Positions 8,018 through 40,438 of a DNA stretch of 64,000 nt are shown piece by piece. The translations under genes and the position numbers were made by a program. Below the pieces are notes generated by a model that was not told the origin of the DNA, did not search any database, and saw nothing but the letters and a program-made list of their open reading frames with translations. The DNA is from Candidatus Omnitrophica bacterium UBA6233 (GTDB lineage Bacteria; Omnitrophota; Gorgyraeia; Gygaellales; Profunditerraquicolaceae): positions 8,119 through 72,118 of the forward strand of contig DJWJ01000019.1 of NCBI GenBank assembly GCA_002440965.1. The letters are read 5' to 3'. Position 1 is the stretch's first letter. The number at the start of each line of letters is the position of its first letter.

Positions 8018-8572
8018 TTAAAATTCGGATTGCAGCATCTTAATCCTTAATACGCTTATCTTCGCTCTTTCTTTCTTTCTTTCTTTTGACACAATTAGTT
8101 TATGTAAAGCGAAAACTGCCGGATGGGGCAGATTAATTCTTAAACTGCCAATTTTAACATTAATAAGCTTACTTGTAAGCAAGTTAAGATATCTAAGCCT
8201 CTGGGCGTTAACACCAAGTTCGGGTAATTTAAACGGCTGGTCTAAACCTGCTCCTTTTTCCGAAACTAAAAATTCCAAAACAAGATCAGGATGCTCTAAT
8301 TTTATATATCCTTGCGGCCCCTTAAAACCAAGGATAAAACCAAGATCTTTCAATAAATCTTCCAAATCAACCTTGGCTTTTATACCTAATGGCAATGGAA
8401 CAAGCAAATCAACATCTCTAGTTGTTATAGAGGTGACATACTTTGACCCGGAGAAATATTCCTTATAGAAGGGAATGCACCAGCTTCCAACAAGAACCAG
8501 ATTTTTTAACGCCCCCACTTTATCTAATCTGCTTAAAACCTCAATGCACAAATCATACTGACTGTTTTCCAC
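8018..8572 (-). CDS. Nucleotidyltransferase-fold protein (Pol-beta-like NTase, possible toxin/Abi-type)
   Basis: 184 aa; GS-x9-DxD motif (SGSKYVTSITTRDVD) typical of minimal nucleotidyltransferases; no homology to glycan genes around it. Confidence 0.4.
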   Translation of the reverse strand: MENSQYDLCIEVLSRLDKVGALKNLVLVGSWCIPFYKEYFSGSKYVTSITTRDVDLLVPLPLGIKAKVDLEDLLKDLGFILGFKGPQGYIKLEHPDLVLEFLVSEKGAGLDQPFKLPELGVNAQRLRYLNLLTSKLINVKIGSLRINLPHPAVFALHKLIVSKERKKERAKISVLRIKMLQSEF

Positions 8573-8870
8573 GCAAAGAACTCCTCAAAAACTTGATTTG
8601 TTTTCGTAATTTGGATAAATATCCCCTGTATTTAGTTCTATAAAATTTCACATCTTTATAGCGTTTAATTTCAACAGGAGACAACTTTCCTTTATAGCGA
8701 AATTTAACTTTCCCATTCTCTCTTGAAATAACATAAAAATATTCATGCCCCTTGACCTTTTTCTTTATTAGGCTGCCTTTTGGCAGCTTAGCTAACTCCC
8801 TTAAATAATCTTTTTCCATTTGAAGGGAATTATTTAACTCTTCTCTTAACACATTCTTGATCGTACCCAT
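8553..8870 (-). CDS. Small highly basic hypothetical protein (105 aa), overlaps downstream NTase gene by 20 nt
   Basis: Lys/Arg-rich ORF (KKKVKGHEYFYVISRENGKVKFRYKGK), translationally coupled with 8018..8572; function unknown. Confidence 0.3.
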   Translation of the reverse strand: MGTIKNVLREELNNSLQMEKDYLRELAKLPKGSLIKKKVKGHEYFYVISRENGKVKFRYKGKLSPVEIKRYKDVKFYRTKYRGYLSKLRKQIKFLRSSLRGKQSV

Positions 8871-27779: not shown

Positions 27780-27833
27780 GGGGACGGTTCTATTTTTCTT
27801 AAATACCTAAACCGGAAAAATAGAACCGTCCCC
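27780..27833 (-). repeat. 19-bp-stem hairpin of the GGGACGGTTCT family, 10 nt upstream of start codon of 26837..27769; T-run follows on the minus strand
   Basis: GGGGACGGTTCTATTTTTC (27780-27798) pairs perfectly with GAAAAATAGAACCGTCCCC (27815-27833); 16-nt loop. Confidence 0.6.
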
Positions 27834-28808
27834 TTTAGCTCCCCTTTTAACCCTATAGCTTTCTATTGTTTGGATTAAACCCGCTAAAACAGAGAACTTA
27901 GGCTTCCAACCGAGTTTAGCCCTGGCTTTGCGGGAAGACAAATACTGATGTTTTATTTCATACTTCGCCTGATTCAATATTTTATAATCAACTGGTTTGC
28001 CAACGGATTTAGCAATCATTTTAACCAGTTCGATGACCGTAAGCGGATTTTCACAGCTAAAATTAAAAGCTTCACCGGCAAGGTTAAGCTTCCGCATTTT
28101 TTCCGCTAAAAGGATATAGCCGTTCACTATGTCCTCCACGAACACATAATCGCGGGTAAACAGACCGTCGCTGCGGATTAAAAGTTTTTTTCCGGCAAGC
28201 GCGCATTTAACCGCATCAGGAACAAGACGGCTGGAATTAAAATCTCCGGGGCCGTAGATGTTACCGCAACGAGTAACACATACAGGCAGGCCATAGGTAT
28301 GGGCGTAGGTATTGGCGATTAAATCCGCGCAGCTTTTGGAAACATCATACGGATGGCTGCCTTGTAACGGAGCCTTTTCCGTATAGGGAAGTTTTTCATG
28401 GATTCCATAGGCCTTATCGCTAGAGGCGAGAATAACTGCTTCGATGTTTTTTGCGTTCCGGCAGGCCTCCAAAACATTCCAGGTTCCCCGGATATTCGCA
28501 GAAAAAGCTGACAAGGGGCGGTTATGGCATTTCCCTACAATGGCCTCTGCCGCTAAATGGAATACCAGATTAATCTTATTTTCCCTTATTATTTTTTCTA
28601 ACAGTTTATAGTTCGCCACGCTGCCTTTAACAACGGATATCCTCTTATAGTCATCCGGAGCAAGAAGCGTGGCTTTTCTTTCAGTCTTAATATCTAATCC
28701 GATTATCCTGGCTCCGGAAGGAATCAACGCCCTGGTAAGATTAGAACCCAAGAACCCTTCAAATCCGGTAATCAGCACATTTTTTCCCGCCCAAAATTTC
28801 TTATTCAT
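27807..28808 (-). CDS. ddhB: CDP-glucose 4,6-dehydratase
   Basis: 333 aa; N-terminus KKFWAGKNVLITGFEGFLGSNL matches RfbG/DdhB signature (FW.GK.V..TGhTGFkGsWL). Confidence 0.7.
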   Translation of the reverse strand: MNKKFWAGKNVLITGFEGFLGSNLTRALIPSGARIIGLDIKTERKATLLAPDDYKRISVVKGSVANYKLLEKIIRENKINLVFHLAAEAIVGKCHNRPLSAFSANIRGTWNVLEACRNAKNIEAVILASSDKAYGIHEKLPYTEKAPLQGSHPYDVSKSCADLIANTYAHTYGLPVCVTRCGNIYGPGDFNSSRLVPDAVKCALAGKKLLIRSDGLFTRDYVFVEDIVNGYILLAEKMRKLNLAGEAFNFSCENPLTVIELVKMIAKSVGKPVDYKILNQAKYEIKHQYLSSRKARAKLGWKPKFSVLAGLIQTIESYRVKRGAKGDGSIFPV

Positions 28809-29604: not shown

Positions 29605-30816
29605 TTATGGCTTAAAAACCGGTTCTTGCTCAAGCTTAGAGCTTAAGGCAACCGTCAAGCCTAATACCGTCCAAAAAAGAAAACTTAACTGAAAAGAATA
29701 CAGGTGAACCTCAAAAAAACTATGGACTAAAAACCCCAATAACCCCGCAGTCAGGCCCAATAAAGCAAAACTACCCAGAGATCCGGGCGCGCTTAAACTT
29801 ATCCTGATACTCCTGTAGAAAATATAGCCCATAAACAGAAGAAAACACAATAAGGAAAAAACTCCCGATTCCGCCCAAATTTGAAGGAAACAATTATGCG
29901 CGTAAAAAATACCCGGGCTATTGGTATAGGAAGCGCAATAATCCATAAAAGTGCCGATACCCTTACCCAAAAAAGGGTGCTCCCTAATCATCCGGCCGGC
30001 GCCGCGGAAAAGAGTGAACCTGTAACTATCCCGCCTGTTCTGGAAGAAAAATAAAAGCAATCCCAATAACGGCACAAAAAAAAGATAGCAAACCAAAAAC
30101 AGGGGCCAAAATACTTTTTTTAGCCGGAGACGGTTAGTGACTAAAACTATAAGAATTAAACCGGAAACAACGCCTAACCACCCGCCCCGGGAAAGAGCCC
30201 AAAGAGAAGACAGGATAAGCATAATGGTAATCAGAAAAAGGCACAATCTTACAGCCGCTTTTTTCCATTTCCACAGGCTAAGGCTCAAGGCAAGGGGAAT
30301 AACGCAGGTCAAATAAGCTGCCAAGGCATTTGGATTTTTAAAAGGGCCTATGCTGGGCAACGAATGGCCCCATGAACCCCTTCCTCTTAAGAATTCAAAC
30401 CCAAAAAACTTTTGCGTAAAAACCGTAAGCCCTACCAGCGCCGCGCTAAACAAGAGGACATAAACCGCCTTAACAATGCGCTTGGTATCCTTAAACGTAT
30501 CGATAATTGCCCAAAGAAGCAAAGGAAACCTGCCCCATTTCAAGATAAGCACCTTTAAGCTTTTAGCCAATAATGGCCCGCTGTTAAACAGGGACAAACC
30601 CATAAAGACAAAAAATAACAGCAGGAATAAAAACAAAACTTTATTGGCCTTGATACTGGAAAAATCGGGGAATAAAATTTTTTTAAGCAAAAAGAAGGCA
30701 AGGACAAAACCGGCAAAAGAACCGATCATCGCTATAGAGATGGGGATAAAGAATATCAACCCGTAAACAGAATATTCCACCGCCGCGTCCAAAAATCTTA
30801 ATATTTTTAATTTCAT
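29605..30816 (-). CDS. O-antigen ligase/Wzy_C-family membrane protein (second paralog)
   Basis: 403 aa polytopic; WALSRGGWLGVVSGL loop motif. Confidence 0.5.
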   Translation of the reverse strand: MKLKILRFLDAAVEYSVYGLIFFIPISIAMIGSFAGFVLAFFLLKKILFPDFSSIKANKVLFLFLLLFFVFMGLSLFNSGPLLAKSLKVLILKWGRFPLLLWAIIDTFKDTKRIVKAVYVLLFSAALVGLTVFTQKFFGFEFLRGRGSWGHSLPSIGPFKNPNALAAYLTCVIPLALSLSLWKWKKAAVRLCLFLITIMLILSSLWALSRGGWLGVVSGLILIVLVTNRLRLKKVFWPLFLVCYLFFVPLLGLLLFFFQNRRDSYRFTLFRGAGRMIREHPFLGKGIGTFMDYCASYTNSPGIFYAHNCFLQIWAESGVFSLLCFLLFMGYIFYRSIRISLSAPGSLGSFALLGLTAGLLGFLVHSFFEVHLYSFQLSFLFWTVLGLTVALSSKLEQEPVFKP

Positions 30817-32639
30817 AGAGGTATTATTTCGCGCAATTTCTTAACCGTTGCCGCCCCGTCCATTACGCCTGCCGTTCTTTCCAGCTCCTTGATTTTGCGC
30901 CTTAAGACGCGCGGGTCAAAAGAATCCGACTGGGCAATATAAATCTTATCCGCCTTGGTAGCTTTGTCTTTTTCGCTATTTAACAAGGTCTCCTCAAAAA
31001 GCTTTTCTCCCGGGCGCAAGCCGATAAACTTTATCTTTATGTCTTCTTCGGGCTTTAAGCCATAAAGAGCAATCAACTCTTTGGCTAAATCCAATATCTT
31101 AATCTGCTCGCCCATATCCAAAATAAATATTTCTCCCGCTTTAGCCATAGCTCCGGCCTGCAAAACAAGCTGGCTGGCTTCATTAATGCTCATAAAATAC
31201 CTTTTGACTTCGGGATGAGTCAGGGTTACCGGGCCGCCTTCTTCGATTTGTTTCTTGAATAACGGAACAACGCTTCCGTCAGAACCCAAAACATTCCCAA
31301 ACCTAACCGCCATAAATTTAGTTTTGCTCATCCTAGCCTTAGACTGCAAAACCATCTCCGCTACCCTTTTAGTAATACCCATAACACTCTTGGGGTTTAC
31401 CGCCTTATCCGTAGAAATAAAGATAAACCTTTCCACTTTGTAATGATCCGAGGCATAAATAAGGTTCCGGCTTCCGATAATATTATTTTTTACCGCTGCC
31501 GCGGGATTCTCCTCCATAAGAGGAACATGCTTATGGGCTGCCGCGTGGAATACAACTTGCGGCTTGTAAAGCGAAAACACCTTCTTTAACAAACCAATGT
31601 CTCTGATATCCCCAATGATGGTCTTAAACTTAATCTTCGGGTATTTTGTCAGAAATTCAATACCCAAATAATAGACATTGTTCTCATTGTGGTCGAATAA
31701 CAAGATTTCCCTAGGGCTAAAATTCATTATCTGCCTGCAAAGAGACGAACCGATTGAGCCGCCAGCGCCGGTAACTAAAACCACTTTATCAAATAAATAA
31801 TCCTTAATCTCTTTTTCATCGATATTTACCGTTTCTCTGCCCAAAAGGTCTTCCGGTTTAATATCCCGGGGCTTAACTTCCAAATCGCCATTAAGTATCT
31901 TTTGCAAACCCGGGACTATCCGGATTTTCACAGAAGGTATCTGGCAACGCGAAATGATATTCCTGATTACTTCGCCTTTGGCAGAAGGAATGGCTATGAT
32001 GATTTCGTCAATTCCGTATTTTTCGACAATCGAAGCGATATCGTTACAGGCTCCCAAAATACCCACGCCTTGAATACGCAAATTCTTTTTGTTCCTATCA
32101 TCGTCAATAAAACCGATAATCTCCATATTTGTGTTGGGATTAATCCTGGCCTCTCTTAACACCATTACACCGGCTTCTCCCGCCCCGATAATGATAGCCC
32201 TCTTCCGTTTGCTTTCCAGAACAGGACGGAACTTTTCCCGGAATAACCGCGTAACGAAACGGATCCCGGCGACAAAACAAAAACTTATGACACCATCCAA
32301 GATAAAGACCGAGCGCGGGAAACCATTAAAATAAGGGATGAAAACAACCACGGCGGTAAAACAGAATATGGCTAGAATATGCGCTTTGATTATTCTCCAG
32401 ATATCATCTATACTGGCGTATCTCCATAAACCGGAATAAAGGCCAAAATACCCGAAAATAATCATTTTGATAGCGGCAAAAACCGGGAGGGTTTTGATAA
32501 TTACCTGCCAAGAGCTGTTGTCAATTTTAAAATCCAACCGCAGGTAAAAAGCGAGGATATAGGCGCAAATCACCAAGGCCAAATGAATGGTTATGATAAT
32601 CAGGCGCCGGGATTTAAAGATTAATTCCTTTAGGTTCAT
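30813..32639 (-). CDS. Membrane-anchored NDP-sugar 4,6-dehydratase (CapD/WbpM/PglF family)
   Basis: 608 aa; 4 N-terminal TM helices, two Rossmann domains (AIIIGAGEAG; VLVTGAGGSIGSSL), YxxxK region. Confidence 0.8.
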   Translation of the reverse strand: MNLKELIFKSRRLIIITIHLALVICAYILAFYLRLDFKIDNSSWQVIIKTLPVFAAIKMIIFGYFGLYSGLWRYASIDDIWRIIKAHILAIFCFTAVVVFIPYFNGFPRSVFILDGVISFCFVAGIRFVTRLFREKFRPVLESKRKRAIIIGAGEAGVMVLREARINPNTNMEIIGFIDDDRNKKNLRIQGVGILGACNDIASIVEKYGIDEIIIAIPSAKGEVIRNIISRCQIPSVKIRIVPGLQKILNGDLEVKPRDIKPEDLLGRETVNIDEKEIKDYLFDKVVLVTGAGGSIGSSLCRQIMNFSPREILLFDHNENNVYYLGIEFLTKYPKIKFKTIIGDIRDIGLLKKVFSLYKPQVVFHAAAHKHVPLMEENPAAAVKNNIIGSRNLIYASDHYKVERFIFISTDKAVNPKSVMGITKRVAEMVLQSKARMSKTKFMAVRFGNVLGSDGSVVPLFKKQIEEGGPVTLTHPEVKRYFMSINEASQLVLQAGAMAKAGEIFILDMGEQIKILDLAKELIALYGLKPEEDIKIKFIGLRPGEKLFEETLLNSEKDKATKADKIYIAQSDSFDPRVLRRKIKELERTAGVMDGAATVKKLREIIPL

Positions 32640-33005: not shown

Positions 33006-33533
33006 TTAATTCAGGGGGGTTTTTATCTTTAGCGTTTTCTCAATATCTTTTAAAAGAAGATACAGGTGGAATTGGTCAATTGGTGAGCGCTCAAAACCAA
33101 AATGCTCATAAAAAGATCTGGCTGGTTCATCTTTGGCATGCACTACAATAGCTCTTCCACCGATGCTATCGGCTGCATAGGTAACCCGCAGCAAAGCCTC
33201 TCGCAACAAAGCCTTTCCTATGCCGACGCCTTGTTCGGTTTTATCAACAGCAAGCCGCGCGAGAATGATAACTGGAATAGGGTAATCAGCCAGCCCTTTT
33301 CCTACGCGTAGAGGGGCCTCCTGCTTGCCTACAGAACCAATGGTTAGCGTATAATATCCTACGACTTTATTATTTCTGATTGTTACGTATGTTTTTGAGG
33401 AACCATTTTGGTTATTAATAATTGCGTATTTTTTAAGATACGAATTGAGGGCTTCGTTACGGCAGTCAAATTCACTAATGGAATGTGATCTTTGGAGTAA
33501 AGTGGGAGTGCTTAAAGAAAGCTTCCTACTCAT
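33006..33533 (-). CDS. GNAT-family acetyltransferase toxin (TacT/AtaT/KacT-like, partner of DUF1778 antitoxin)
   Basis: 175 aa; LARLAVDKTEQGVGIGKALL acetyl-CoA motif; 8-nt overlap with upstream antitoxin. Confidence 0.7.
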   Translation of the reverse strand: MSRKLSLSTPTLLQRSHSISEFDCRNEALNSYLKKYAIINNQNGSSKTYVTIRNNKVVGYYTLTIGSVGKQEAPLRVGKGLADYPIPVIILARLAVDKTEQGVGIGKALLREALLRVTYAADSIGGRAIVVHAKDEPARSFYEHFGFERSPIDQFHLYLLLKDIEKTLKIKTPLN

Positions 33534-33801
33534 TAAAAATATCCGGCCCCTTAAAGAGGTTTTTTAGCTTTGGAATTTCGCGAGCCGGACTATCCAATGC
33601 CTCGCAGAAAGCCTTCCACTGTGGTTCAGGCAGTTGGAAATTGTTCCTATCAGCCATTAATTCTTCCGCTTCTTTCATTGCGCTTTCAAGAATAAATGCA
33701 GATAGCTTTTTTTGGCGTAGCGAAGCCACATACATAAGGAATCTTTTTTTCCTGCTGTCGATACGGAAGTCAATCCGTGTATTTTTCTGTATTGTTGCCA
33801 T
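33526..33801 (-). CDS. DUF1778/TacA-family antitoxin (RHH-like)
   Basis: Start at Met16 of track ORF (MATIQKNTRIDFRIDSRKKRFL...): ATG 33799-33801 preceded by AAGGAGGT RBS. Confidence 0.65.
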   Translation of the reverse strand: MATIQKNTRIDFRIDSRKKRFLMYVASLRQKKLSAFILESAMKEAEELMADRNNFQLPEPQWKAFCEALDSPAREIPKLKNLFKGPDIFNE

Positions 33802-33827
33802 ATTTCTTACCTCCTTTACCCAATAAA

Positions 33828-33855
33828 AATATAACATATTGTACACACATTGTCA
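33828..33855 (-). promoter_or_regulatory. Sigma70-type promoter of GNAT TA operon with TGTGTACA palindrome (putative autoregulatory operator)
   Basis: On minus strand TTGACA-16 nt-TATATT, ~30 nt upstream of antitoxin ATG. Confidence 0.5.
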
Positions 33856-33882: not shown

Positions 33883-34446
33883 TTAATGCCGGACGCCTTC
33901 TTTGCGGATAACTTTTATTGCGGTCAAGAAAAGAATACGGAGATCGAAGGCAAAGGAGAGATGATTTAGATAATATTCATCGAAGGAAACCTTTACGGGA
34001 ATCGGCAGGTCATCCCTGCCGTTGACCTGGGCCCAACCGGTGATACCGGGAGTAAGCTTATAGACCCCATTATCCGTCCTTAAGGCGACAAGGTCATCCT
34101 GATTAAACAAAGCCGGGCGCGGCCCGACAAAACTCATATCTCCCTTTAAAATATTGAACAACTGCGGAAGTTCATCGAGGCTGGATTTACGCAAAAACCC
34201 GGAGCCGGGAATCAAATACTTTTCAGGATTTTCCATCAAATGCGTGGCTACCTGGGGCGTATTTAATTTCATTGTCCTGAACTTAGCCATTTTAAAAATG
34301 GTATTGTTTGCGCCAACGCGATCCGTCCAAAAAATAGCCGGCCCCTTAGACATTAGCTTAATGAATAAGGCGATAACTAACATCGGAACGCTCAATAGAA
34401 TTATTAATGCTAAAGCCAAGATTAAATCAAAAATTCGTTTCATCAT
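33883..34446 (-). CDS. Initiating undecaprenyl-phosphate sugar phosphotransferase, small type (PglC/WbaP-C-terminal family)
   Basis: MKRIFDLILALALIILL... single TM then FRTM...DELPQLFNILKGDMSFVGPRP catalytic motif. Confidence 0.8.
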   Translation of the reverse strand: MMKRIFDLILALALIILLSVPMLVIALFIKLMSKGPAIFWTDRVGANNTIFKMAKFRTMKLNTPQVATHLMENPEKYLIPGSGFLRKSSLDELPQLFNILKGDMSFVGPRPALFNQDDLVALRTDNGVYKLTPGITGWAQVNGRDDLPIPVKVSFDEYYLNHLSFAFDLRILFLTAIKVIRKEGVRH

Positions 34447-34481
34447 ATCACTAATACATTCCAAGATATTAGCTACGCTGT

Positions 34482-35297
34482 CTATCTTACTTTAATTCTT
34501 TTAGTTTGCCCTAAGAAATTGTCTCTTGAAACAATAGGCCTTCTTATCCTTTTTTCCAACTGTTTTCTGGCATTACCGGCGATATCTCCTCCTGCTTTGG
34601 CATCGGATTTAAGCTTCGGCACGCCTTGCGAATCTTCAACGCGATGGATTTCGGTAGTTGATCTTTCTCCAAGCATTGTAAAAATAAGCTCAAAATCGTC
34701 CATATGGTCGCGTAGATTTTCACGTTTTAACCGTTTTATCTTTTTATACTGGCTAGGCGTAATTCCAAAAGTGGCTTTAGAGATTTCTGCCGTTAAAATT
34801 TCATAATCCTTTTGTTCTTGCGCCCCGCGTTTCTGCCATTCATCCGTAAGTTCTTCCCGAATGGCAATGCCCCGTATCCGTTTTTCAATCCAGCTATCGG
34901 GATATCCTTTGAGCTTATAGAGCATCCTTGTTCGCTTGGTTGCCAATTCCGGGTCTTCTATCTCTTTAATACGTTCATAACCAACTTTAGCCAACCACCG
35001 CTTAAATGGCTCGGCTTTAGGAGATGGAATTGACTGAACAATACGAAAAATGCCTTCGGTATTGGCGCAATTCAGCTTTTGAGGCCCTCCTGCCGTCTTA
35101 ATCAAAAGGGGGGTGGCAAATTGCCCCCACCCTTTGGACAACTCCGGATCCCTTCTACGCATATCCTTTATGTACCCATCAGGCTGCACCGAATCCGTAA
35201 GTACCGCCACTACATCATTAATCACAAACCACCATTCATTATTATGAATGGTTTTACGCACCTTTTGCCCCTTAAATACTGCTATTTTTGTTTCCAT
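34482..35297 (-). CDS. Bro-N domain protein (phage antirepressor/DinD-like)
   Basis: 271 aa; N-terminal IAVFKGQKVRKTIHNNEWWFVINDVVAVL resembles Bro-N/DinD family. Confidence 0.55.
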   Translation of the reverse strand: METKIAVFKGQKVRKTIHNNEWWFVINDVVAVLTDSVQPDGYIKDMRRRDPELSKGWGQFATPLLIKTAGGPQKLNCANTEGIFRIVQSIPSPKAEPFKRWLAKVGYERIKEIEDPELATKRTRMLYKLKGYPDSWIEKRIRGIAIREELTDEWQKRGAQEQKDYEILTAEISKATFGITPSQYKKIKRLKRENLRDHMDDFELIFTMLGERSTTEIHRVEDSQGVPKLKSDAKAGGDIAGNARKQLEKRIRRPIVSRDNFLGQTKRIKVR

Positions 35298-35413
35298 ATC
35301 GCCCTTCTCCTTTCTCGCGTTATTATTATTTACCCTCTACTATAATTGACGCAAGAAAAGGCCAAATCTAACATTTATTTCTCAATACTAAACCCCTTTA
35401 ACCATCCCCTGAT

Positions 35414-35462
35414 CCCATCCTTGCAGGGTGAAGGGCGGGGGGAGCAGCCAAACAGCTTACCT
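35414..35462. repeat. Copy A of recurring GC-rich intergenic motif (CCATCCTTGCAGGGTGAAGGGCGGGG + AGCCAAACAGCTTACC tail)
   Basis: Direct comparison with copies B-D. Confidence 0.7.
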
Positions 35463-36634
35463 TATAATATCTTTCCCGACCATAGTTGCTGCAAAAAAAT
35501 CTCCCATGGTGATATTTCTATTTTACCGTGCAGCCTTTTCTCCTTTTCATTACAGACTACTATGCTTTTTTTTGGAGAACACGATTGGATAAAAGCCTCT
35601 AGCCCATTCATATCTTTTCCGTCAATCCGAGCAGATCCTTTTACCTCTATAGCAACCTCCCCCTGGCCCAGGACAAAATCAACCTCAAGCCCCGACTTGG
35701 TCCTCCAGAAATTTATCGCAAAGTCCTTACCCGCGTAAGATCTATAAGCAATCATCTCCATAAGCAAGAAATGTTCGAACGCCTTACCAAATTCCGCTCC
35801 TTTTTGTTCGGCTAAATGCCTCTTTGTCAGGTAACCGGCGACACCAACATCAAACATATAATATTTCGAGGCTTTTGTTATAACCTGCCGGGATTGCCTT
35901 TTCTTAAAAGGCTCTACCCTTACAGCCAACAGCGTATCTATAAGTATCTGGTAATACTCTTTGACCGTCTTGGAATCGACACCGCATTCGCGGGCAATAT
36001 TACAATAATTCGTTATCTCGCCATGCGAGTAGCCGAAAGCGTCAAAAAATCTTGAAAACGCGGGAATATTACGTGTCAGGCCTTCAGCAAAAACCTCTTC
36101 ACGTAAATAATCCTGCACATAAGCCTCTAAAGATTTTTTACAATCTATGCCGCTTTGCAAATAATGAAACGGAATCAGGCCATGATTTAAAGCGCGCAAC
36201 AAATCAAATTTTGTAATCTCCCGGCTGACAAGCGGAAAAAGCTCATAACGCCATGCCCTGCCTCCCAGCAGATTCGCGTGGCCTTTTTTTAATTTTCTTG
36301 CGCTTGAACCGCAAAGCACAAAACTCAAACCCTTATTTTCTATCAACCAGTGCACTTCGTCGAGCACTTGCGGAACTTTTTGCACTTCATCGAGTATTAC
36401 CGGTTCTTTAAGCACAACCTCGTCTTTTGCGAGTAACTGTTCGCGCAAAAGCGAGGGATTTTTTGATATTTCAAAAAATAAATCCGTTTTTAGAAAATCA
36501 TACACCACGCTATTGGGAAATCTTTCTTTCAGATATGTGGATTTGCCTGTCTTTCTGGCTCCCCATAAAAACGCGGATTGGCGATGCGGAAGCCGCATAA
36601 CCAGTTTTCTTGGGATATTTTTCATTTGTATCAT
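35462..36634 (-). CDS. COG1373-type AAA+ ATPase (AAA_14 + DUF4143)
   Basis: 390 aa; Walker A GARKTGKST, Walker B ILDEVQ. Confidence 0.65.
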   Translation of the reverse strand: MIQMKNIPRKLVMRLPHRQSAFLWGARKTGKSTYLKERFPNSVVYDFLKTDLFFEISKNPSLLREQLLAKDEVVLKEPVILDEVQKVPQVLDEVHWLIENKGLSFVLCGSSARKLKKGHANLLGGRAWRYELFPLVSREITKFDLLRALNHGLIPFHYLQSGIDCKKSLEAYVQDYLREEVFAEGLTRNIPAFSRFFDAFGYSHGEITNYCNIARECGVDSKTVKEYYQILIDTLLAVRVEPFKKRQSRQVITKASKYYMFDVGVAGYLTKRHLAEQKGAEFGKAFEHFLLMEMIAYRSYAGKDFAINFWRTKSGLEVDFVLGQGEVAIEVKGSARIDGKDMNGLEAFIQSCSPKKSIVVCNEKEKRLHGKIEISPWEIFLQQLWSGKIL

Positions 36635-36660
36635 CCTCCGGATTAGTATTACTAATTAGG

Positions 36661-36689
36661 AGTATATACCATTTTAGTTAGAGCGTCAA
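36661..36689 (-). promoter_or_regulatory. Near-consensus sigma70 promoter for ATPase gene 35462..36634
   Basis: Minus strand TTGACG-17 nt-TATACT (contains palindrome GTATATAC), 27 nt upstream of ATG. Confidence 0.5.
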
Positions 36690-36696
36690 GGCTTTT

Positions 36697-36750
36697 CCCC
36701 CATCTTGCAGAGTCAAGGGCGGGGTAAGAGCCTTTCTTTAACCTTACCTA
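36697..36750. repeat. Copy B of recurring GC-rich motif (CCCCATCTTGCAGAGTCAAGGGCGGGG + ...AACCTTACC)
   Basis: Alignment to copies A, C, D. Confidence 0.7.
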
Positions 36751-37934
36751 TTGAGGAGTCCGGCAAGAAATAGCGGCCGCTTTATACCAACCATATTATA
36801 GCCATCAGCAAAGATAATTTTTGTTTTGATACCCATACCCTTGAACTGGCTTCTCCCCTTGCCCTTACCGCCAACTTCAAAGACGATATCTTGCGAATCA
36901 CGAATAAGATAATCCGGCGTTTTTGCCCCGCGCATAGACTTAAGATAAAAAACTTCTTTGCCTAAGGCCCTAAACGCTTCCACAAAAAAATCCTCCCGCA
37001 AGCCACCGATAGCCTCATCAAACGGTTTATACAAAAGACGATACGGCAAAGCCATGACAACCTTAGGCTCCTTCATCACATTGCTCCCCATTGGGAAAAT
37101 CCGATGCAAAACAAAAGCCCGTTCCAAAAGCGTAATATACTGTTCAGCTTTATACTTGGTAATATGAACATTCTGTGACACCGAGGAATAGTTGATTCCG
37201 TCAACCCCTGAGCGCCCAATAAAACGGACAAGCTGTTCTATCTTTTCCAGCTCACCGGTCAGGAGCCTGGCGATATGAGGGATATCTTTACGAATAATCG
37301 TTTTGAGGATGTTTTCTAAAAGCGCCAGGGGCTGCGGTTCCCGCAAAGCGAATGGCATAAGGCCACCCTGGATATACGATAAAAAATGTTCTCCCGCCCT
37401 AAAAACATCCGCGGGGATCTTTCCCTCAACAATATTCTGGATGGTTAAGACGGTAAACTCCTGCCCATATTTGAATTTCGCGTACTCCCGCAACGAAAAA
37501 GGATAAAGGGTTTTGAGCAGGACACGCCGCGATAAATCGTAACCCGATTCATACATCCCTAATGCCGTAGAACTGGTGAAGATCACCCTGATGTCAAAAA
37601 CATCGTAGAGTTTCTTGAGGTCGGCTTCAAAACGGGGATAAACATGCACTTCATCCAACAAAAACAACCTTATCCGCATCGTTTCATGCAAAGCCTTAAC
37701 GAGATCAAAAAGATCACCCTCCATAGCATCCAGGGATACATAAAAAGACCCTTCATTTGCCAGGGCCAGTTGTTTAAGCATGATCGTCTTGCCTGCTCCG
37801 CGCGGCCCAACGATTCCAATAAAATGAGCTCCGGCATCCCGAGTAATGTCGTCATAAAGCTCACGCTTTTTATCGTATTTCTGTCCATCTTTCTTGGCCA
37901 GACGGTCAAATTCAAGCAATTGATTGATATTCAT
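36744..37934 (-). CDS. COG1373-type AAA+ ATPase (AAA_14 + DUF4143), divergent paralog
   Basis: 396 aa; Walker A GPRGAGKT, Walker B LLDEVH. Confidence 0.55.
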   Translation of the reverse strand: MNINQLLEFDRLAKKDGQKYDKKRELYDDITRDAGAHFIGIVGPRGAGKTIMLKQLALANEGSFYVSLDAMEGDLFDLVKALHETMRIRLFLLDEVHVYPRFEADLKKLYDVFDIRVIFTSSTALGMYESGYDLSRRVLLKTLYPFSLREYAKFKYGQEFTVLTIQNIVEGKIPADVFRAGEHFLSYIQGGLMPFALREPQPLALLENILKTIIRKDIPHIARLLTGELEKIEQLVRFIGRSGVDGINYSSVSQNVHITKYKAEQYITLLERAFVLHRIFPMGSNVMKEPKVVMALPYRLLYKPFDEAIGGLREDFFVEAFRALGKEVFYLKSMRGAKTPDYLIRDSQDIVFEVGGKGKGRSQFKGMGIKTKIIFADGYNMVGIKRPLFLAGLLNR

Positions 37935-37969
37935 CTTATCTTTCTATTTTACTGTTACAAGTATATCAC

Positions 37970-37997
37970 AAATATACATTCTGTCAAATTGTTTTAT
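37970..37997 (-). promoter_or_regulatory. Near-consensus sigma70 promoter with GTATAT-N5-ATATAC palindrome for ATPase gene 36744..37934
   Basis: Minus strand TTGACA-16 nt-TATACT; palindrome GTATATCACAAATATAC overlaps spacer/-10; near-identical module at 39034-39062. Confidence 0.5.
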
Positions 37998-38083
37998 GGA
38001 ATGCTTATCATTACAGATAATTCCTATCGCTAATGCAGCTAATTTTTATTTTACGCTTTCATGCCCCCTAGCCATCTCCCTAA

Positions 38084-38130
38084 TCCCCTCTTGCAGGATG
38101 AAGGGCGGGGGACAGCCAAGAAAACGCTAT
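38084..38130. repeat. Copy C of recurring GC-rich motif (CCCTCTTGCAGGATGAAGGGCGGGGG + ACAGCCAAG)
   Basis: Alignment to copies A, B, D. Confidence 0.7.
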
Positions 38131-38133
38131 CTG

Positions 38134-38493
38134 TTATTCCGCTAATTCTTTTTCTTTTAATATTTTGTAATTTGTTTTAAAGTAGGTATTGAATATTACC
38201 CGGAAACTATTGTAGGGAGATATCGCAGGCCAGACAACTTCGCAACTTTTACCCGGCAGGTAATAAGCATTAAGGATGGATAATTTGGTGTTTTCGCTAT
38301 ATTTACCACGCCTATATCCATGGTCGCCTTGAAGAACAATAATCGGTTTTTTTACAGATTTAAGAAGAATCTCGTCAATAACTTCTAATATCAGCTTATT
38401 AGTTCCTAACACCTGTTCTATATAAGCGGAACTATCCATCATCCCCTTTCGTTTCCACAAAGGTATAACATTGGCATCCCGGTCAAAAATCAA
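38134..38493 (-). pseudogene. C-terminal remnant of an alkaline-phosphatase-superfamily sulfatase/phosphoethanolamine- or phosphoglycerol-transferase
   Basis: 119-aa ORF containing IIVLQGDHGYRRG, which matches the conserved C-terminal metal-site motif (xxGDHG) of sulfatase/LtaS/EptA enzymes; N-terminal ~400 aa catalytic and membrane parts absent. Confidence 0.4.
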
Positions 38494-38515
38494 TGGTTCA
38501 TGAGGAGTATACTGC

Positions 38516-38788
38516 CTAATTTATGTTTCTATATACCGAGGCTCGAGAGGCAATCAAAGTAACAAAAACTTTATTCTTCTCTTTGTCAATCCCGTAAATC
38601 GCGCGGTAATCACCTACCCGGTATCTATAACGCCTCTTCTCACCCTTTAGCACCTTTATATTCGGGCCCCAGAAAGGATTACTTTCAAGCTCCTCAAAAC
38701 ACTTATTTAACCTTTTTGCCAGCTCTTCCGGGCAAGACTTATAGGACTTAAGCGCAGCCGGCATCAAAAGGACTTCAAAATTACCCAC
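38516..38788 (-). CDS. RelE/ParE-family type II toxin
   Basis: 90 aa; RYRVGDYRAIYGIDKEKNKVFVTLI typical RelE/ParE fold signature; overlaps antitoxin by 8 nt. Confidence 0.6.
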   Translation of the reverse strand: MGNFEVLLMPAALKSYKSCPEELAKRLNKCFEELESNPFWGPNIKVLKGEKRRYRYRVGDYRAIYGIDKEKNKVFVTLIASRASVYRNIN

Positions 38789-39014
38789 GCTTTACTTTTC
38801 TCCATCTGGTGCCTTTGCCTTTCAGGTATTGTCTTTCGCCCTCGGCAACAATCTTTTGCTCTGCCGAAGTAAGAGAGCCCTCTATCTGCTCAACAATCAA
38901 TTCCCGGACAAATGAGGACATTGACATATACCTCTTTTTGCAGATCTTAACTGTTTCGTTATAAAGCGAGGATGGCATTCTTATCAAAAGCTCTTTATTC
39001 ATAGTTACAGACAT
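38781..39014 (-). CDS. Ribbon-helix-helix (CopG-like) antitoxin
   Basis: Start at Met32 of track ORF (MSVTMNKELLIRMPSSLYNETVKI...), ATG 39012-39014 preceded by GGAGGTGA RBS. Confidence 0.5.
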   Translation of the reverse strand: MSVTMNKELLIRMPSSLYNETVKICKKRYMSMSSFVRELIVEQIEGSLTSAEQKIVAEGERQYLKGKGTRWRKVKRG

Positions 39015-39033
39015 TTTTATCACCTCCGAAGAA

Positions 39034-39062
39034 AGTATATCATAGTGATATACTTTTGTCAA
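39034..39062 (-). promoter_or_regulatory. Consensus sigma70 promoter with GTATATCACTATGATATAC palindromic operator for RelE/RHH operon
   Basis: Minus strand TTGACA-17 nt-TATACT; perfect 8/8 palindrome arms spanning spacer and -10. Confidence 0.6.
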
Positions 39063-39154
39063 GCGGCATCCGTTACCCTCTCCATAGTCCGTATACAAGG
39101 TGCCCAACGGCCAGACGAAGAGCCCAAGCTGCGCGGCAATCCGTTAGCTTTTAA

Positions 39155-39200
39155 TGGTTCCTCTAATCCCCTCTTCCAGCGTAAACGGCGGCTTCCAGCC
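39155..39200. repeat. Copy D (degenerate) of recurring motif (TAATCCCCTCTTCCAGCGTAAACGGCGGCTTCCAGCCAAG)
   Basis: Shares TAATCCCCTCTT-CAG and AGCCAAG blocks with copy C. Confidence 0.5.
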
Positions 39201-39286
39201 AAGCAAATTCCTGATTTTTTTGCTATCAACGACAGAATTCCTGTCCCACGAGAATCCACATGTTATGATGTACCTCTCTCCTAATG

Positions 39287-40438
39287 CTACTCATGACTCA
39301 CCCGCTGCTGGAGCAAACTCTTTGCCGCACTAATGACAGAACTAACCTCTATAGCCATCATGCAAAGGCTTACGAACTCATTTCCGAGTGGCGACAAATA
39401 AGGACAATCAGGTACTATTGCTCTTTCAATATCTATACAAGGGCTACAAGATGCTCCTTTATAGAGTACGACCGCACTCTTGGAAAACGGCCGATACCGA
39501 TTGGGAGAGTTTGGGCCAAAAAGCCCAATTACCCCTGCCCCTTGGGCGGCTGCCAAATGCATTGGCCCTGTATCATTGGCCACCACTAGCTTAACAACCG
39601 AAAACAATGAAATTAGCTGCCTGATATTTGTCTTCCCCGCTAGGTTGTTTACTTTTAACCGATATCTTGGCTCGACACTATTGACCAGATCATCGCAAAG
39701 TTTAACTTCGGCCTTACTTCCAGTTATACTAACGTTTAGCCCTTGCTCATCAATAATCCACTTAGCCAATTTAGCAAAGCAACTGACAGGCCATCTTCGG
39801 CCCAACCCGGTGTTACCCGACCCAGGATGCAAAACTACCTGAACATTTAACGACCTTGCCCATTCAACATTTTCAGCATCACATGGCAATGATACTAATC
39901 CATCTAGATCCTGCTCTATTCCACAAGGTTTAAGCAATTGAACGAAATTAAGTGCCGCATGTATGGAAGAATTGAATAAAACTGAAGTTGTTGAACCTAT
40001 ATGTTTACACTGTCGGTCTGAATGAAACGCGACGCGATGGGGCGCATTTGTCGCTCGCGCGCATAATGCTGAAATCCTGGCAAACTGTTCAAAATCAACA
40101 CACATTTCATAGCGAGACCTCCACAGCATCGCAACTAGAGAGCAAAAACGCCAGATTTCACTTTCTTTAAAAAGAATTACATTATCAACCCACGAAGCAG
40201 AAGCTGCGATTTCATATCCTTCCCCCGTTGTAAGAAAATCAATCTGATAGTCTGGGAATTTTTCCTTGAACAACTTAACTCCCGACATGATTAGGACAAC
40301 ATCACCCATACCATACAATTTAATAAACAAAACCCTTCGGCTGTGGATCTTTCGTGGTGGCATAAACCGCAGGACGCTGCATATCAGAAAAAGCAACGGC
40401 ACTCCCACCCAGTAATCCAGTAACTTACGTAATTTCAT
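39287..40438 (-). CDS. Glycosyltransferase family 9 (heptosyltransferase-like)
   Basis: 383 aa; NDTGPMHLAAAQGAGVIGLFGPN motif. Confidence 0.65.
   Translation of the reverse strand: MKLRKLLDYWVGVPLLFLICSVLRFMPPRKIHSRRVLFIKLYGMGDVVLIMSGVKLFKEKFPDYQIDFLTTGEGYEIAASASWVDNVILFKESEIWRFCSLVAMLWRSRYEMCVDFEQFARISALCARATNAPHRVAFHSDRQCKHIGSTTSVLFNSSIHAALNFVQLLKPCGIEQDLDGLVSLPCDAENVEWARSLNVQVVLHPGSGNTGLGRRWPVSCFAKLAKWIIDEQGLNVSITGSKAEVKLCDDLVNSVEPRYRLKVNNLAGKTNIRQLISLFSVVKLVVANDTGPMHLAAAQGAGVIGLFGPNSPNRYRPFSKSAVVLYKGASCSPCIDIERAIVPDCPYLSPLGNEFVSLCMMAIEVSSVISAAKSLLQQRVSHE

Follow-up and report, generated by a model that had tools for sequence, protein, structure and literature searches.

The GC-rich repeat found between the accessory genes of this window (the whole 64-kb stretch of DNA analysed) is, judging by its homology, a pseudogene remnant, comprising the conserved 3′-terminal ~45-110 nt of a gene for a sugar-nucleotide epimerase/reductase. 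With a probability of about 0.5, we interpret the repeat as the scar of serial '3′-end displacement' recombination, which has built an array of gene cassettes with the 3′ end of that gene as recombination anchor. The repeat is probably also a reusable anchor for further recombination. Moreover, remnant-separated arrays recur in other Omnitrophota genomes and, on sequence comparison, this speaks for a recombination junction rather than a promoter element.

Results

Distribution of the repeat

The only copies of the repeat in the 64 kb are the four listed in Table 1 (A-D). The pattern CTTGCAGRRTSAAGGGCGGGG has exactly three matches against 0.01 expected from shuffles, which bears out the preliminary description of three copies with an exact core and one degenerate copy. 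The GC-rich character noted there in an AT-rich context is also correct (65-69% GC in the cores, 40% in the window). Copies A-C share 75-85% mutual identity over only about 45-75 nt, and copy D matches B at 73% over 26 nt and C at 78% over 45 nt. The length of ~28 bp first given is too short, as copies A, C and D all extend further (Table 1).

All local genes lie on the minus strand and copies A-D are found between accessory genes, each 0-30 nt 3′ of the preceding gene's stop codon. The copies had been placed 60-150 bp upstream of an accessory gene; the distances hold (gaps to the next minus-strand start codon of about 118, 65, 151 and 61-154 nt), but the position is simply that between two minus-strand genes. 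The 'CTTACC tail' ascribed to copies A and B is merely GGTAAG after two ATPase stop codons. Copy C does adjoin the truncated sulfatase-like gene, as had been stated.

Table 1. Repeat copies, cassettes and flanking genes in the window.
Feature	Position	Strand	Details
Copy A core	35415-35440		minus-strand genes around
Copy B core	36699-36724		
Copy C core	38085-38110		
Copy D core	39168-39193		degenerate
Copy A, decayed E remnant with indel	35368-35467	-	reaches natural E stop (…TTGAGAAATAAATGTTAG)
Copy B, shortest remnant	36697-36742	-	core CCCCGCCCTTGACTCTGCAAGATGGGGG; between ATPase2 stop and ATPase1 -35 box
Copy C, decayed E remnant	38046-38126	-	reads RFLGCPPPFILQEGIREMARGHESVK and stop; directly after sulfatase-like stop codon
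Copy D, C-terminal E remnant	39144-39257	-	reads GFSWDRNSVVDSKKIRNLLGWKPPFTLEEGIRGTIKS, stop codon included
Upstream flank, GT9 glycosyltransferase	39287-40438	-	polysaccharide cluster
Cassette 1, RHH antitoxin and ParE/RelE toxin	38516-39014	-	antitoxin 39014-38781; toxin 38788-38516; Pfam PF05016; promoter 39062-39034, 11/12 matches (promoter scan)
Sulfatase-like gene, C-terminal fragment	38134-38493	-	ORF; 5′ side truncated at about 38506
Cassette 2, ATPase2 unit	36737-38016	-	AAA_14 + DUF4143; PADLOC PDC-S01; ORF 37934-36744; promoter 37987-37960
Cassette 3, ATPase1 unit	35462-36696	-	AAA_14 + DUF4143; PDC-S01; ORF 36634-35462; promoter 36689-36661
Cassette 4, Bro-N protein	34482-35367	-	PADLOC PDC-S13, E=2.5e-107; ORF 35297-34482 plus conserved leader
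Downstream flank, initiating sugar phosphotransferase (Bac_transf)	33883-34464	-	
CapD/WbpM-like 4,6-dehydratase	30813-32639	-	kept downstream of the hotspot in L061, L077 and L080

The repeat is the 3′ end of an epimerase gene

Read on the minus strand, the repeat corresponds to the final 15-35 codons of a gene, here named E, for an NAD-dependent sugar epimerase. Copy D still translates to a peptide ending in DSKKIRNLLGWKPPFTLEEGIRGTIKS and a stop codon, and copies A-C are decayed versions of it. When copy D was searched against the PDB (phmmer), all 12 matches (best E=0.0025) fell at the C-terminus of a dTDP-glucose 4,6-dehydratase or a UDP-sugar epimerase. It also matched remnant P0122 (tblastn, E=3e-12) and an HMM built solely from other genomes (E=4e-17). 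Copy C was recovered by tblastn (E=0.002) and by the HMM from other genomes (E=1.8e-7), whilst copy A matched a remnant at 2249-2320 of locus L070 (blastn, E=7e-8) and its tail matches the end of an intact E gene in locus L080. Copy B scored only E=0.46 with the HMM from other genomes, and its homology derives from its resemblance to A and C (81-85% identical across 26 nt).

In the original arrangement, E was the gene directly before the initiating sugar transferase within a surface-polysaccharide cluster of Omnitrophota. The intact gene is gone from the window, where remnants have decayed to 45-110 nt. The matches included 90 fragment ORFs of 63-201 aa and no full-length protein; 16 of the 17 fragment ORFs named by organism in a source are from Omnitrophota. 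Remnants are truncated at variable 5′ points, from E residue 13 to about 300, and some span nearly the whole gene, but their 3′ end always falls at residues 310-320. In more than 25 copies the natural 3′ end is kept and 5′ parts are lost, exactly as displacement predicts.

Cassettes and related loci

Near-consensus sigma-70 promoters precede the RHH/ParE, ATPase2 and ATPase1 genes. The ATPase1 gene, represented by more than 120 protein clusters in Omnitrophota at 82-93% identity, shows homology to loci L061, L062 and L068 whose limits are exactly the -35 box and the stop codon, its promoter being conserved with the gene in unrelated contexts. The whole ATPase2 unit is 85.9% identical to positions 4316-5595 of L070, with unrelated flanks, and the Bro-N leader is common to the window, L041, L070 and L080. 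A Pfam search with the sulfatase-like fragment gave no match; in L041 this gene extends further upstream with different sequence.

Related loci show the hotspot at several stages of occupation. L077 represents the state without a cassette, containing a remnant only, and its E end overlaps the start codon of Bac_transf. L080 is the one-cassette state: an intact 320-aa E is followed by Fic, then by a displaced second copy of the E 3′ end (358 nt, 85.8% identity), and then by Bac_transf, CapD and Wzy. L061, L070 and L071 are arrays of 4, 8 and 7 remnants respectively (4-8 per 10 kb), with one remnant at every cassette boundary and all genes on the same strand, in keeping with the insertion junction that the preliminary description had favoured. 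Array cargo comprises DUF4143 ATPases, Bro-N/DinD, Fic, HigBA, MNT-HEPN, AbiE and ParDE, each with its own promoter. Cassette order in the window differs from that of L061, and cargo units turn up again in other arrays between different neighbours. The joins between cargo and remnant differ from genome to genome and therefore no transferable unit can be defined. Searches for a circular intermediate or vector, or for matches to viral contigs, found none. Motif scans of genomes and metagenomes gave only single matches per contig (16 and 24 respectively); we estimate that the 16 are at about chance level, and many of the 24 are repeated finds of a single unrelated GC-rich sequence.

L041 comes from a near-identical strain and differs from the window by a cassette of 1016 bp that has a copy of the repeat on either side, with copy C as the breakpoint. 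Identity between the two is 99.6% on one side of the repeat and 95.8% on the other. This presence or absence of a cassette between two copies supports the earlier suggestion of a recombination or att-like junction of inserted cassettes.

Proposed mechanism

We infer a Campbell-type or displacement mechanism for which host homologous recombination would suffice, without a dedicated recombinase. Incoming DNA that carries an E 3′-end stretch and a self-promoted accessory gene would recombine with the resident E 3′ end, so that the accessory gene would arrive just past the E stop codon and the older 3′ end would be pushed downstream as a 5′-truncated remnant. Repeated rounds would give an array headed by E or a remnant, in which cargo and remnants alternate up to the sugar transferase, and later recombination between remnants may delete, add or reorder cassettes. 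Copies A-C are a poor substrate for RecA, being ~45-75 nt long at 75-85% identity, and recent events such as the L041 indel are thus hard to obtain by plain homologous recombination. Also weighing against this reading are the conserved synonymous sites described below, the cargo-remnant joins that vary between genomes, and the failure to find a circular intermediate, a vector or a viral-contig match.

Alternative explanations

A possible, though rather doubtful, alternative is that the E tail (…ACGCTGGAAGAGGGGATTAGGGAGA…) is a true att-like site of a recombinase encoded elsewhere, e.g. at an array head, with integron-like site-specific capture and excision. The terminal ~45 nt of E are the sole part retained in all copies, including the most decayed, and third-codon-position variability is 0.07-0.13 in the tail vs 0.3-0.37 further upstream. 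This unusual conservation of synonymous sites in the last ~12 codons hints at a constraint at the DNA level, possibly a specific site. However, low synonymous variation could stem from gene conversion among copies or from the overlapping translation start of Bac_transf. Several breakpoints lie directly after AAGAGGGG (the L080 remnant, copy B and L041a), and the crossover between the window and L041, a single recent event, maps to about 3 nt although the copies involved are only about 75% identical. The layout of same-strand, single-gene cassettes with toxin-antitoxin and defence genes is also integron-like. Against this, no recombinase was found among all ORFs of at least 150 aa in the 64-kb window or in the L061, L070 and L071 arrays, whose heads lie outside the contig portions in view, and no repeat-bounded unit of the window, L041, L061, L070, L071 or L080 contains an integrase. 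The copies contain neither a hairpin nor paired R″/R′ boxes, the point where a remnant gives way to the downstream cargo shifts by 0-60 nt, and the near-whole-gene remnants are more simply explained by homology-driven duplication. It is also unlikely that Omnitrophota possess a previously undescribed integron-like platform in which the epimerase-gene 3′ end is a reusable site for a putative recombinase. A nuclease-ATPase from the DUF4143 or Bro-N cargo, which is always present, could be that enzyme, with a homing-like action. If real, this platform would build up a store of phage-defence and toxin-antitoxin cassettes within a cell-surface glycan locus.

We also think it improbable that the remnants are inert debris, left by illegitimate recombination that repeatedly imported or duplicated segments of the E 3′ end plus a neighbouring gene, and that the repeat has no present role. 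Frameshifts, stop codons and hairpin insertions do occur inside remnants, the copies in the window are short and diverged, and hypervariable polysaccharide regions have been reported for Omnitrophota (10.64898/2026.05.20.726742; 10.64898/2026.06.07.730766). However, debris sits poorly with the retention of the 3′ end and with a recent cassette indel bounded exactly by two copies. Moreover, copies A, B and C have the derived substitutions CCCCCGCCC in common, and thus an already decayed remnant kept being copied.

A cis-regulatory role for the downstream accessory gene, be it as operator, UP element, insulator/terminator or 5′-leader RNA, is very unlikely. It would fit the occurrence of the repeat upstream of each accessory gene and the conserved synonymous sites. 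The preliminary description, which raised this possibility, placed the repeat just upstream of -35 boxes; this is true of copy B (10 nt) but not of C and D (about 98 and about 100 nt in a promoter scan), and such unfixed spacing speaks against an operator or UP-like element. So does the fact that the same sequence is ordinary coding sequence in intact E genes of other genomes, and that ATPase1 homologues elsewhere keep their promoter without the repeat. The suggested 5′-leader RNA structure is not borne out either: when 71-nt DNA segments of either strand were folded, copies A, C and D did no better than shuffles (z of +0.4 to +1.8) and only B gave negative values (-1.2 to -1.8), no consensus structure was found, and no Rfam covariance model matched.

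Lastly, a long hairpin repeat (GGGGACGGTTCTATTTTTC…GAAAAATAGAACCGTCCCC), REP/MITE-like and mobilised by a Y1 transposase, might drive the rearrangements with the epimerase repeat merely its preferred neighbour, as it lies 5′ of all four L061 copies and inside many L070 and L071 remnants, and a Y1_Tnp gene adjoins the ATPase1 homologue in L068, but this is the most improbable reading, as copies A-D lack such a hairpin, which in the window occurs only at 27833-27780 and 1408-1356 and is intrinsic-terminator-like there. The epimerase repeat itself was rejected as a REP/BIME or MITE element, with only four copies in 64 kb and no palindrome.

Comparison with known systems

The arrays resemble integrons and CALINs in their same-strand, mostly single-gene cassettes parted by a repeated element, in cargo rich in toxin-antitoxin and phage-defence genes and in a cassette order that varies between genomes. 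However, no attC hairpin was seen in the 71-nt folding, with A, C and D at shuffle level. The four intergenic regions contained no R″ box (RYYYAAC), and GTTRRRY (R′) had two isolated matches with no partner. No IntI, attI or Pc was seen, with the array heads of L061, L070 and L071 outside view. Here the cassettes have their own promoters, whereas integron cassettes are mostly promoterless and share a common promoter, and the repeat consists of gene remnants that differ in length.

In tandem genomic islands (attL/attR) that sit at the 3′ ends of tRNA or protein genes, successive insertions are likewise bounded by direct repeats of the target-gene 3′ end, and the end of the target gene is regenerated. 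The units described here differ in being single genes of 1-1.4 kb without an integrase, and the repeats range from 45 to >400 nt. As for the short crossover core of such islands, the window/L041 event is confined to ~3 nt and other junctions are scattered, among few recent events.

Defence islands or hotspots between conserved core genes are a further known kind, as are hypervariable polysaccharide regions, which have been reported for Omnitrophota (10.64898/2026.05.20.726742; 10.64898/2026.06.07.730766). The present locus is similar in that a fixed spot (E | Bac_transf-CapD) contains defence and toxin-antitoxin genes that differ among strains and species, but the reported hotspots are not described as partitioned inside by remnants of a flanking gene.

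The remaining parallel is the 'C-terminal displacement' of Rhs genes and the orphan cdiA-CT/cdiI or rhs-CT modules (PMC2935791, PMC3150448). There the repeat is the region before the variable toxin domain and the cargo consists of alternative C-termini of the parent protein, whereas here it is the very 3′ end of a gene for a metabolic enzyme, the cargo comprises separate self-promoted genes after the E stop codon, and the parent gene is often lost. Both have a resident gene and, after it, a series of displaced 3′ pieces, 5′-truncated with the 3′ end kept, in which the repeats share homology with the 3′ portion of that gene and each piece retains a short conserved stretch of it. An intact parent stands at the head, as in L080, whilst the window has remnants only. 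In serial 3′-end displacement, as in the Rhs/CDI scheme, new DNA would enter via the conserved stretch and push the older ends downstream.

A GC-rich repeat between accessory genes

A GC-rich motif is present in the window as four direct repeats, which both direct reading of positions 35000-39800 and a repeat finder showed; in shuffles 0.01 occurrences of CTTGCAGRRTSAAGGGCGGGG are expected there versus the 3 found. The four-copy motif of the preliminary description is confirmed. Motif cores are 65-69% GC, in a window of 40% GC. Every ORF of at least 150 aa in the 64-kb window lies on the minus strand, where the order in gene direction is GT9 glycosyltransferase, copy D, RHH-ParE with a 5′-truncated sulfatase-like fragment, copy C, ATPase2, copy B, ATPase1, copy A, Bro-N, Bac_transf (an initiating sugar phosphotransferase), TacA-GNAT and a CapD-like dehydratase. 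Each copy therefore lies directly 3′ of one stop codon and 60-150 nt ahead of the next start. Neither a pattern search nor an HMM built from other genomes found further copies in the window.

The locus is 100% identical in several independent assemblies, and is thus not an assembly artefact. At 35524 and 36107 (inside ATPase1), 37767 and 39185-39218, several Logan contigs with 100% identity to the window break off; this suggests graph branch points, with variant strains or further copies present in the samples concerned. The breaks at copy D may reflect just another D-type copy in the sample and were not counted as evidence.

A genome-wide motif search, as the preliminary description had proposed, was run with the core of copies A to C on genome and metagenome collections; it returned one match per contig only (16 in the genome scan) and missed both the contig of the window and L041, a near-identical strain. 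Two palindromic look-alikes from these scans, one in L006 and one in a family of GC-rich contigs, were judged unrelated or chance. The L006 contig comes from an unrelated phylum, and in it the 21-mer CCCCGCCCTTCATCCTGCAAG, an exact match to copy C of the window, has palindromic surroundings (CCCGCC…GGCGGG); because the genome scan gave 16 single matches, this is probably a chance match.

Positions of the motif copies, neighbouring features and related loci
Feature	Contig	Position	Remark
Motif copy A	Window	35415-35440	
Motif copy B	Window	36699-36724	
Motif copy C	Window	38085-38110	
Motif copy D	Window	39168-39193	Degenerate
Promoter	Window	39062-39034	Near-consensus
Promoter	Window	37987-37960	Near-consensus
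Promoter	Window	36689-36661	Near-consensus
TacA antitoxin/GNAT toxin pair	Window	33006-33846	Between Bac_transf and CapD-like gene
105-aa protein and NTP_transf_8 nucleotidyltransferase	Window	8018-8870	AbiE-type toxin-like; between ManC and GT9 gene; GC dip 34.5%
Long hairpin repeat	Window	27780-27833, 1356-1408	
Long hairpin repeat	L061	3878-3932, 5253-5305, 6133-6200	
Truncated 42-aa ORF	L041	1367-1495	Truncated at motif
Conserved ~160-nt region	L062, L068	5771-5930 in each	Precedes non-hotspot ATPase1 homologue
Palindromic look-alike	L006	229-280	Bacteroidota MAG JAUZOL010000208.1
Related locus	L041		99.6% identical over 9.1 kb; extra 1016 bp between sulfatase fragment and ATPase2
Related locus	L061		Omnitrophota MAG; syntenic Bac_transf-CapD-Wzy genes
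Related locus	L070		Same MAG as L061; 8 epimerase remnants within 10-11 kb array
Related locus	L071		Groundwater Omnitrophica; 7 epimerase remnants within 10-11 kb array
Related locus	L077		No cassette; single 89-aa remnant overlapping Bac_transf start codon
Related locus	L080		Intact 320-aa epimerase, C-terminal end …LLVDSSKIRNLLGWKAPFTLEEGIREMVLKNKC and stop

Origin of the repeat

Translation of copy D on the minus strand gives an open frame, GFSWDRNSVVDSKKIRNLLGWKPPFTLEEGIRGTIKS, closed by a stop codon. This 37-residue peptide had 12 matches among PDB sequences (best E=0.0025), all at equivalent C-terminal positions and exclusively in dTDP-glucose 4,6-dehydratases and UDP-sugar epimerases or decarboxylases. 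Copies A to C have decayed translations (LGCPPPFILQEGIREMARG…, PPPFTLQ… and PPLTLQ…). The HMM, built solely from other genomes' copies, detected window copies D (E=4e-17) and C (E=1.8e-7). Copy A matches a remnant in L070 (blastn, E=7e-8) and ends in the natural tail …TTGAGAAATAAATGTTAG of an NAD-dependent sugar epimerase gene, hereafter E; copy B is tied to the family solely by 81-85% identity to A and C. Derived changes common to A, B and C (TCCCCCGCCCTTCA where others have GGAAGGCGCCGTTTA) show that an already decayed remnant was re-copied within this lineage. We conclude, with a probability of about 0.9, that the motif is a remnant of the 3′ end of E that marks cassette boundaries. A puzzling GC-rich repeat would thereby be explained as gene debris with a structural role.

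E encodes an extended-SDR NAD-dependent epimerase/dehydratase (PF01370) for which no NCBIfam equivalog scored above its cut-off; one remnant is labelled 'UDP-4-keto-D-QuiNAc 4-reductase' by JGI. The position of E ahead of an initiating phosphotransferase and a CapD/WbpM-type dehydratase is reminiscent of wbpK/wbpV-wbpL-wbpM. When one remnant served as query for a protein search, the matches were 90 ORFs of 63-201 aa, none of them a full-length protein, and 16 of the 17 organism-named ones were Omnitrophota.

Remnants start on E anywhere from residue 13 to ~300 and always end at the natural C-terminus. All ~25 copies have …TGGAAGGCGCCGTKKACGCTGGAAGAGGGGATTAGGGAGAYGGTT in common, and sequence specific to the cargo starts 3′ of the E stop codon. 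Third codon positions are less variable in the last ~12 codons (0.07-0.13) than further upstream (0.3-0.37) in the 10 long copies compared, which come from four genomes. This is suggestive of a DNA-level constraint; gene conversion or overlap with the Bac_transf translation start could also be its source.

Related loci

Besides a DinD-like Bro-N gene, the L041 insert contains a truncated ORF of 33 codons and a copy of the Bro-N leader; it is bounded by the motif on either side, and left of the motif identity to the window falls to 95.8%. In L061 the upstream cassettes (AbiE, an ATPase1 homologue, another DUF4143 ATPase and ParD-PemK) are unlike those of the window in set and order, and a motif copy is found at each of four cassette boundaries. 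The motif-flanked insert and the motif at the L061 boundaries lend support to the earlier suggestion of a recombination or att-like junction. In L041, a 42-aa ORF truncated at the motif is driven by the duplicated Bro-N leader, and its start (MKKTIGKEYINFLNEIKSRIV…) resembles that of a DUF1016/YhcG-type nuclease. The sulfatase-like gene, truncated at ~38506 in the window (38494-38515), extends upstream with different sequence in L041 (1-30), placing a second breakpoint between ParE and the sulfatase fragment.

The long arrays of L070 and L071, all on one strand, carry DUF4143 ATPases, Fic, Gp49/HigBA, MNT-HEPN, RhuM-Fic, CopG and Bro-N genes. In L080, E is followed by a Fic gene, a duplicate of the 3′ region of E (358 nt, 85.8% identity) and Bac_transf-CapD-Wzy; homology of the duplicate stops at …CTGGAAGAAGG, within the motif core. 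The architecture is recurrent in an understudied, mostly uncultured phylum, where arrays reach 8 cassettes of defence or toxin-antitoxin genes per 10 kb, divided by remnants of one epimerase gene within a surface-polysaccharide locus, a phage-receptor determinant.

Throughout the window (1-64000), genes of glycan biosynthesis follow one another on a single strand, forming a surface-polysaccharide region of unusual size with at least 4 Wzy_C-type genes, several GT2/GT4/GT9 transferases, aminotransferases, NeuB and others. The TacA/GNAT pair has no epimerase motif at its flanks; Bac_transf and the CapD-like gene are directly adjoining in L061, L077 and L080. The nucleotidyltransferase module at 8018-8870 is probably another toxin-antitoxin insertion and has no motif nearby. 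A long hairpin repeat, GGGGACGGTTCTATTTTTC…GAAAAATAGAACCGTCCCC with a T-run, has the look of an intrinsic-terminator family. Within the window, its overlap with the 3′ end of an epimerase gene (27807-28808) falls where the window and the L043 assembly differ, and in L061 the hairpin is found inside E remnants and also as an 84-nt in-frame insertion in Bac_transf.

Cargo genes

Relatives of ATPase1 form more than 120 protein clusters (82-93% identical), the named ones being nearly all Candidatus Omnitrophota, and the window therefore probably belongs to this phylum. Homology of ATPase1 to L061, L062 and L068 extends exactly from the -35 box (36696) through the stop codon (35462), and that of ATPase2 to L070 from 38016 to 36737; the cargo units are discrete. 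ATPase1 homologues also occur outside the hotspot without the motif, and ATPase1 and ATPase2 are just 20% identical, ruling out the motif as part of an ATPase gene unit. The conserved region preceding the non-hotspot homologues contains a hairpin (AGTTGACATCT…AGATGTCAACT), and their neighbours are a GIY-YIG gene (L062) and a Y1 transposase gene (L068), which may represent a different route of movement for ATPase1-type genes. Cargo junctions differ on both sides between genomes, and therefore no transferable unit (cargo with its upstream or downstream remnant) could be defined from cargos common to several genomes.

PADLOC assigned ATPase1 (E=6e-47) and ATPase2 (E=5e-22) to PDC-S01 and both Bro-N proteins to PDC-S13 (about 1e-105), the L041 Bro-N protein being a DinD equivalog too. 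The cargo (ATPases, Bro-N and ParE/RHH here; AbiE, HigBA, MNT-HEPN and Fic elsewhere) thus comprises candidate genes for phage defence and toxin-antitoxin systems. Searches with an HMM for the 3′ end of E offer a handle to harvest such cargo from Omnitrophota metagenomes, with an expected enrichment in candidate defence genes, e.g. PDC-S01 DUF4143 ATPases and PDC-S13 Bro-N/DinD.

Cassette gain and alternative readings

DNA with a cargo gene and a portion of the 3′ end of E would recombine with the resident copy of that end, through Campbell-type integration of a circle or along a homology-facilitated route. A complete E end would be regenerated with the new cargo next to it and the old end displaced downstream; later recombination between remnants would remove or reshuffle cassettes, as in L041 versus the window. 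The series from L077 through L080 to L061, L070 and L071, together with remnants that have lost 5′ sequence and kept their 3′ end, fits serial 3′-end displacement. We give this homology-driven mechanism roughly even odds; if it holds, cassette arrays can arise without a dedicated or integron integrase. No recombinase was found among all ORFs of at least 150 aa in the 64-kb window, which otherwise encode glycan biosynthesis, or in the array portions seen in L061, L070 and L071. A viral vector was also sought, and none of the viral contigs carries the motif, an E remnant or ATPase1.

It is possible that the motif acts instead as an att-like core for a recombinase encoded elsewhere, which would constitute a new capture system. 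The window copies are short and diverged, the crossover in L041 is narrow, breakpoints recur after AAGAGGGG and synonymous sites are conserved, all of which argue for site-specific exchange.

An operator or UP-like element, as also raised in the preliminary description, is not supported by the promoter scan: the motif lies ~100, ~98 and 10 nt upstream of the near-consensus promoters (in the order tabulated), a variable spacing. The 5′-leader RNA proposed alongside it fares no better: shuffled sequences fold at least as well as copies A, C and D, the motif has no Rfam match and RNAalifold gave no consensus fold 3′ of the E stop. A hairpin, attC, REP or terminator is ruled out by the same folding and by a box search, which found no R″/R′ boxes at the motif copies. 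A dispersed repeat is ruled out by the lack of extra copies in the window and the single matches per contig in the collection scans.

Comparison with known systems

Hypervariable polysaccharide regions in Omnitrophota are treated in two 2026 preprints (10.64898/2026.05.20.726742; 10.64898/2026.06.07.730766, the latter with 176 complete genomes), in whose main text a term search found no mention of remnant repeats. The feature is a gene-end displacement or cassette array, with a sugar epimerase gene as the base and a load of defence genes. Among described processes, Rhs C-terminal displacement and the orphan modules of CDI/Rhs systems (PMC2935791, PMC3150448) come closest; there, unlike in the epimerase-remnant array, the cargo consists of alternative ends of one and the same protein.
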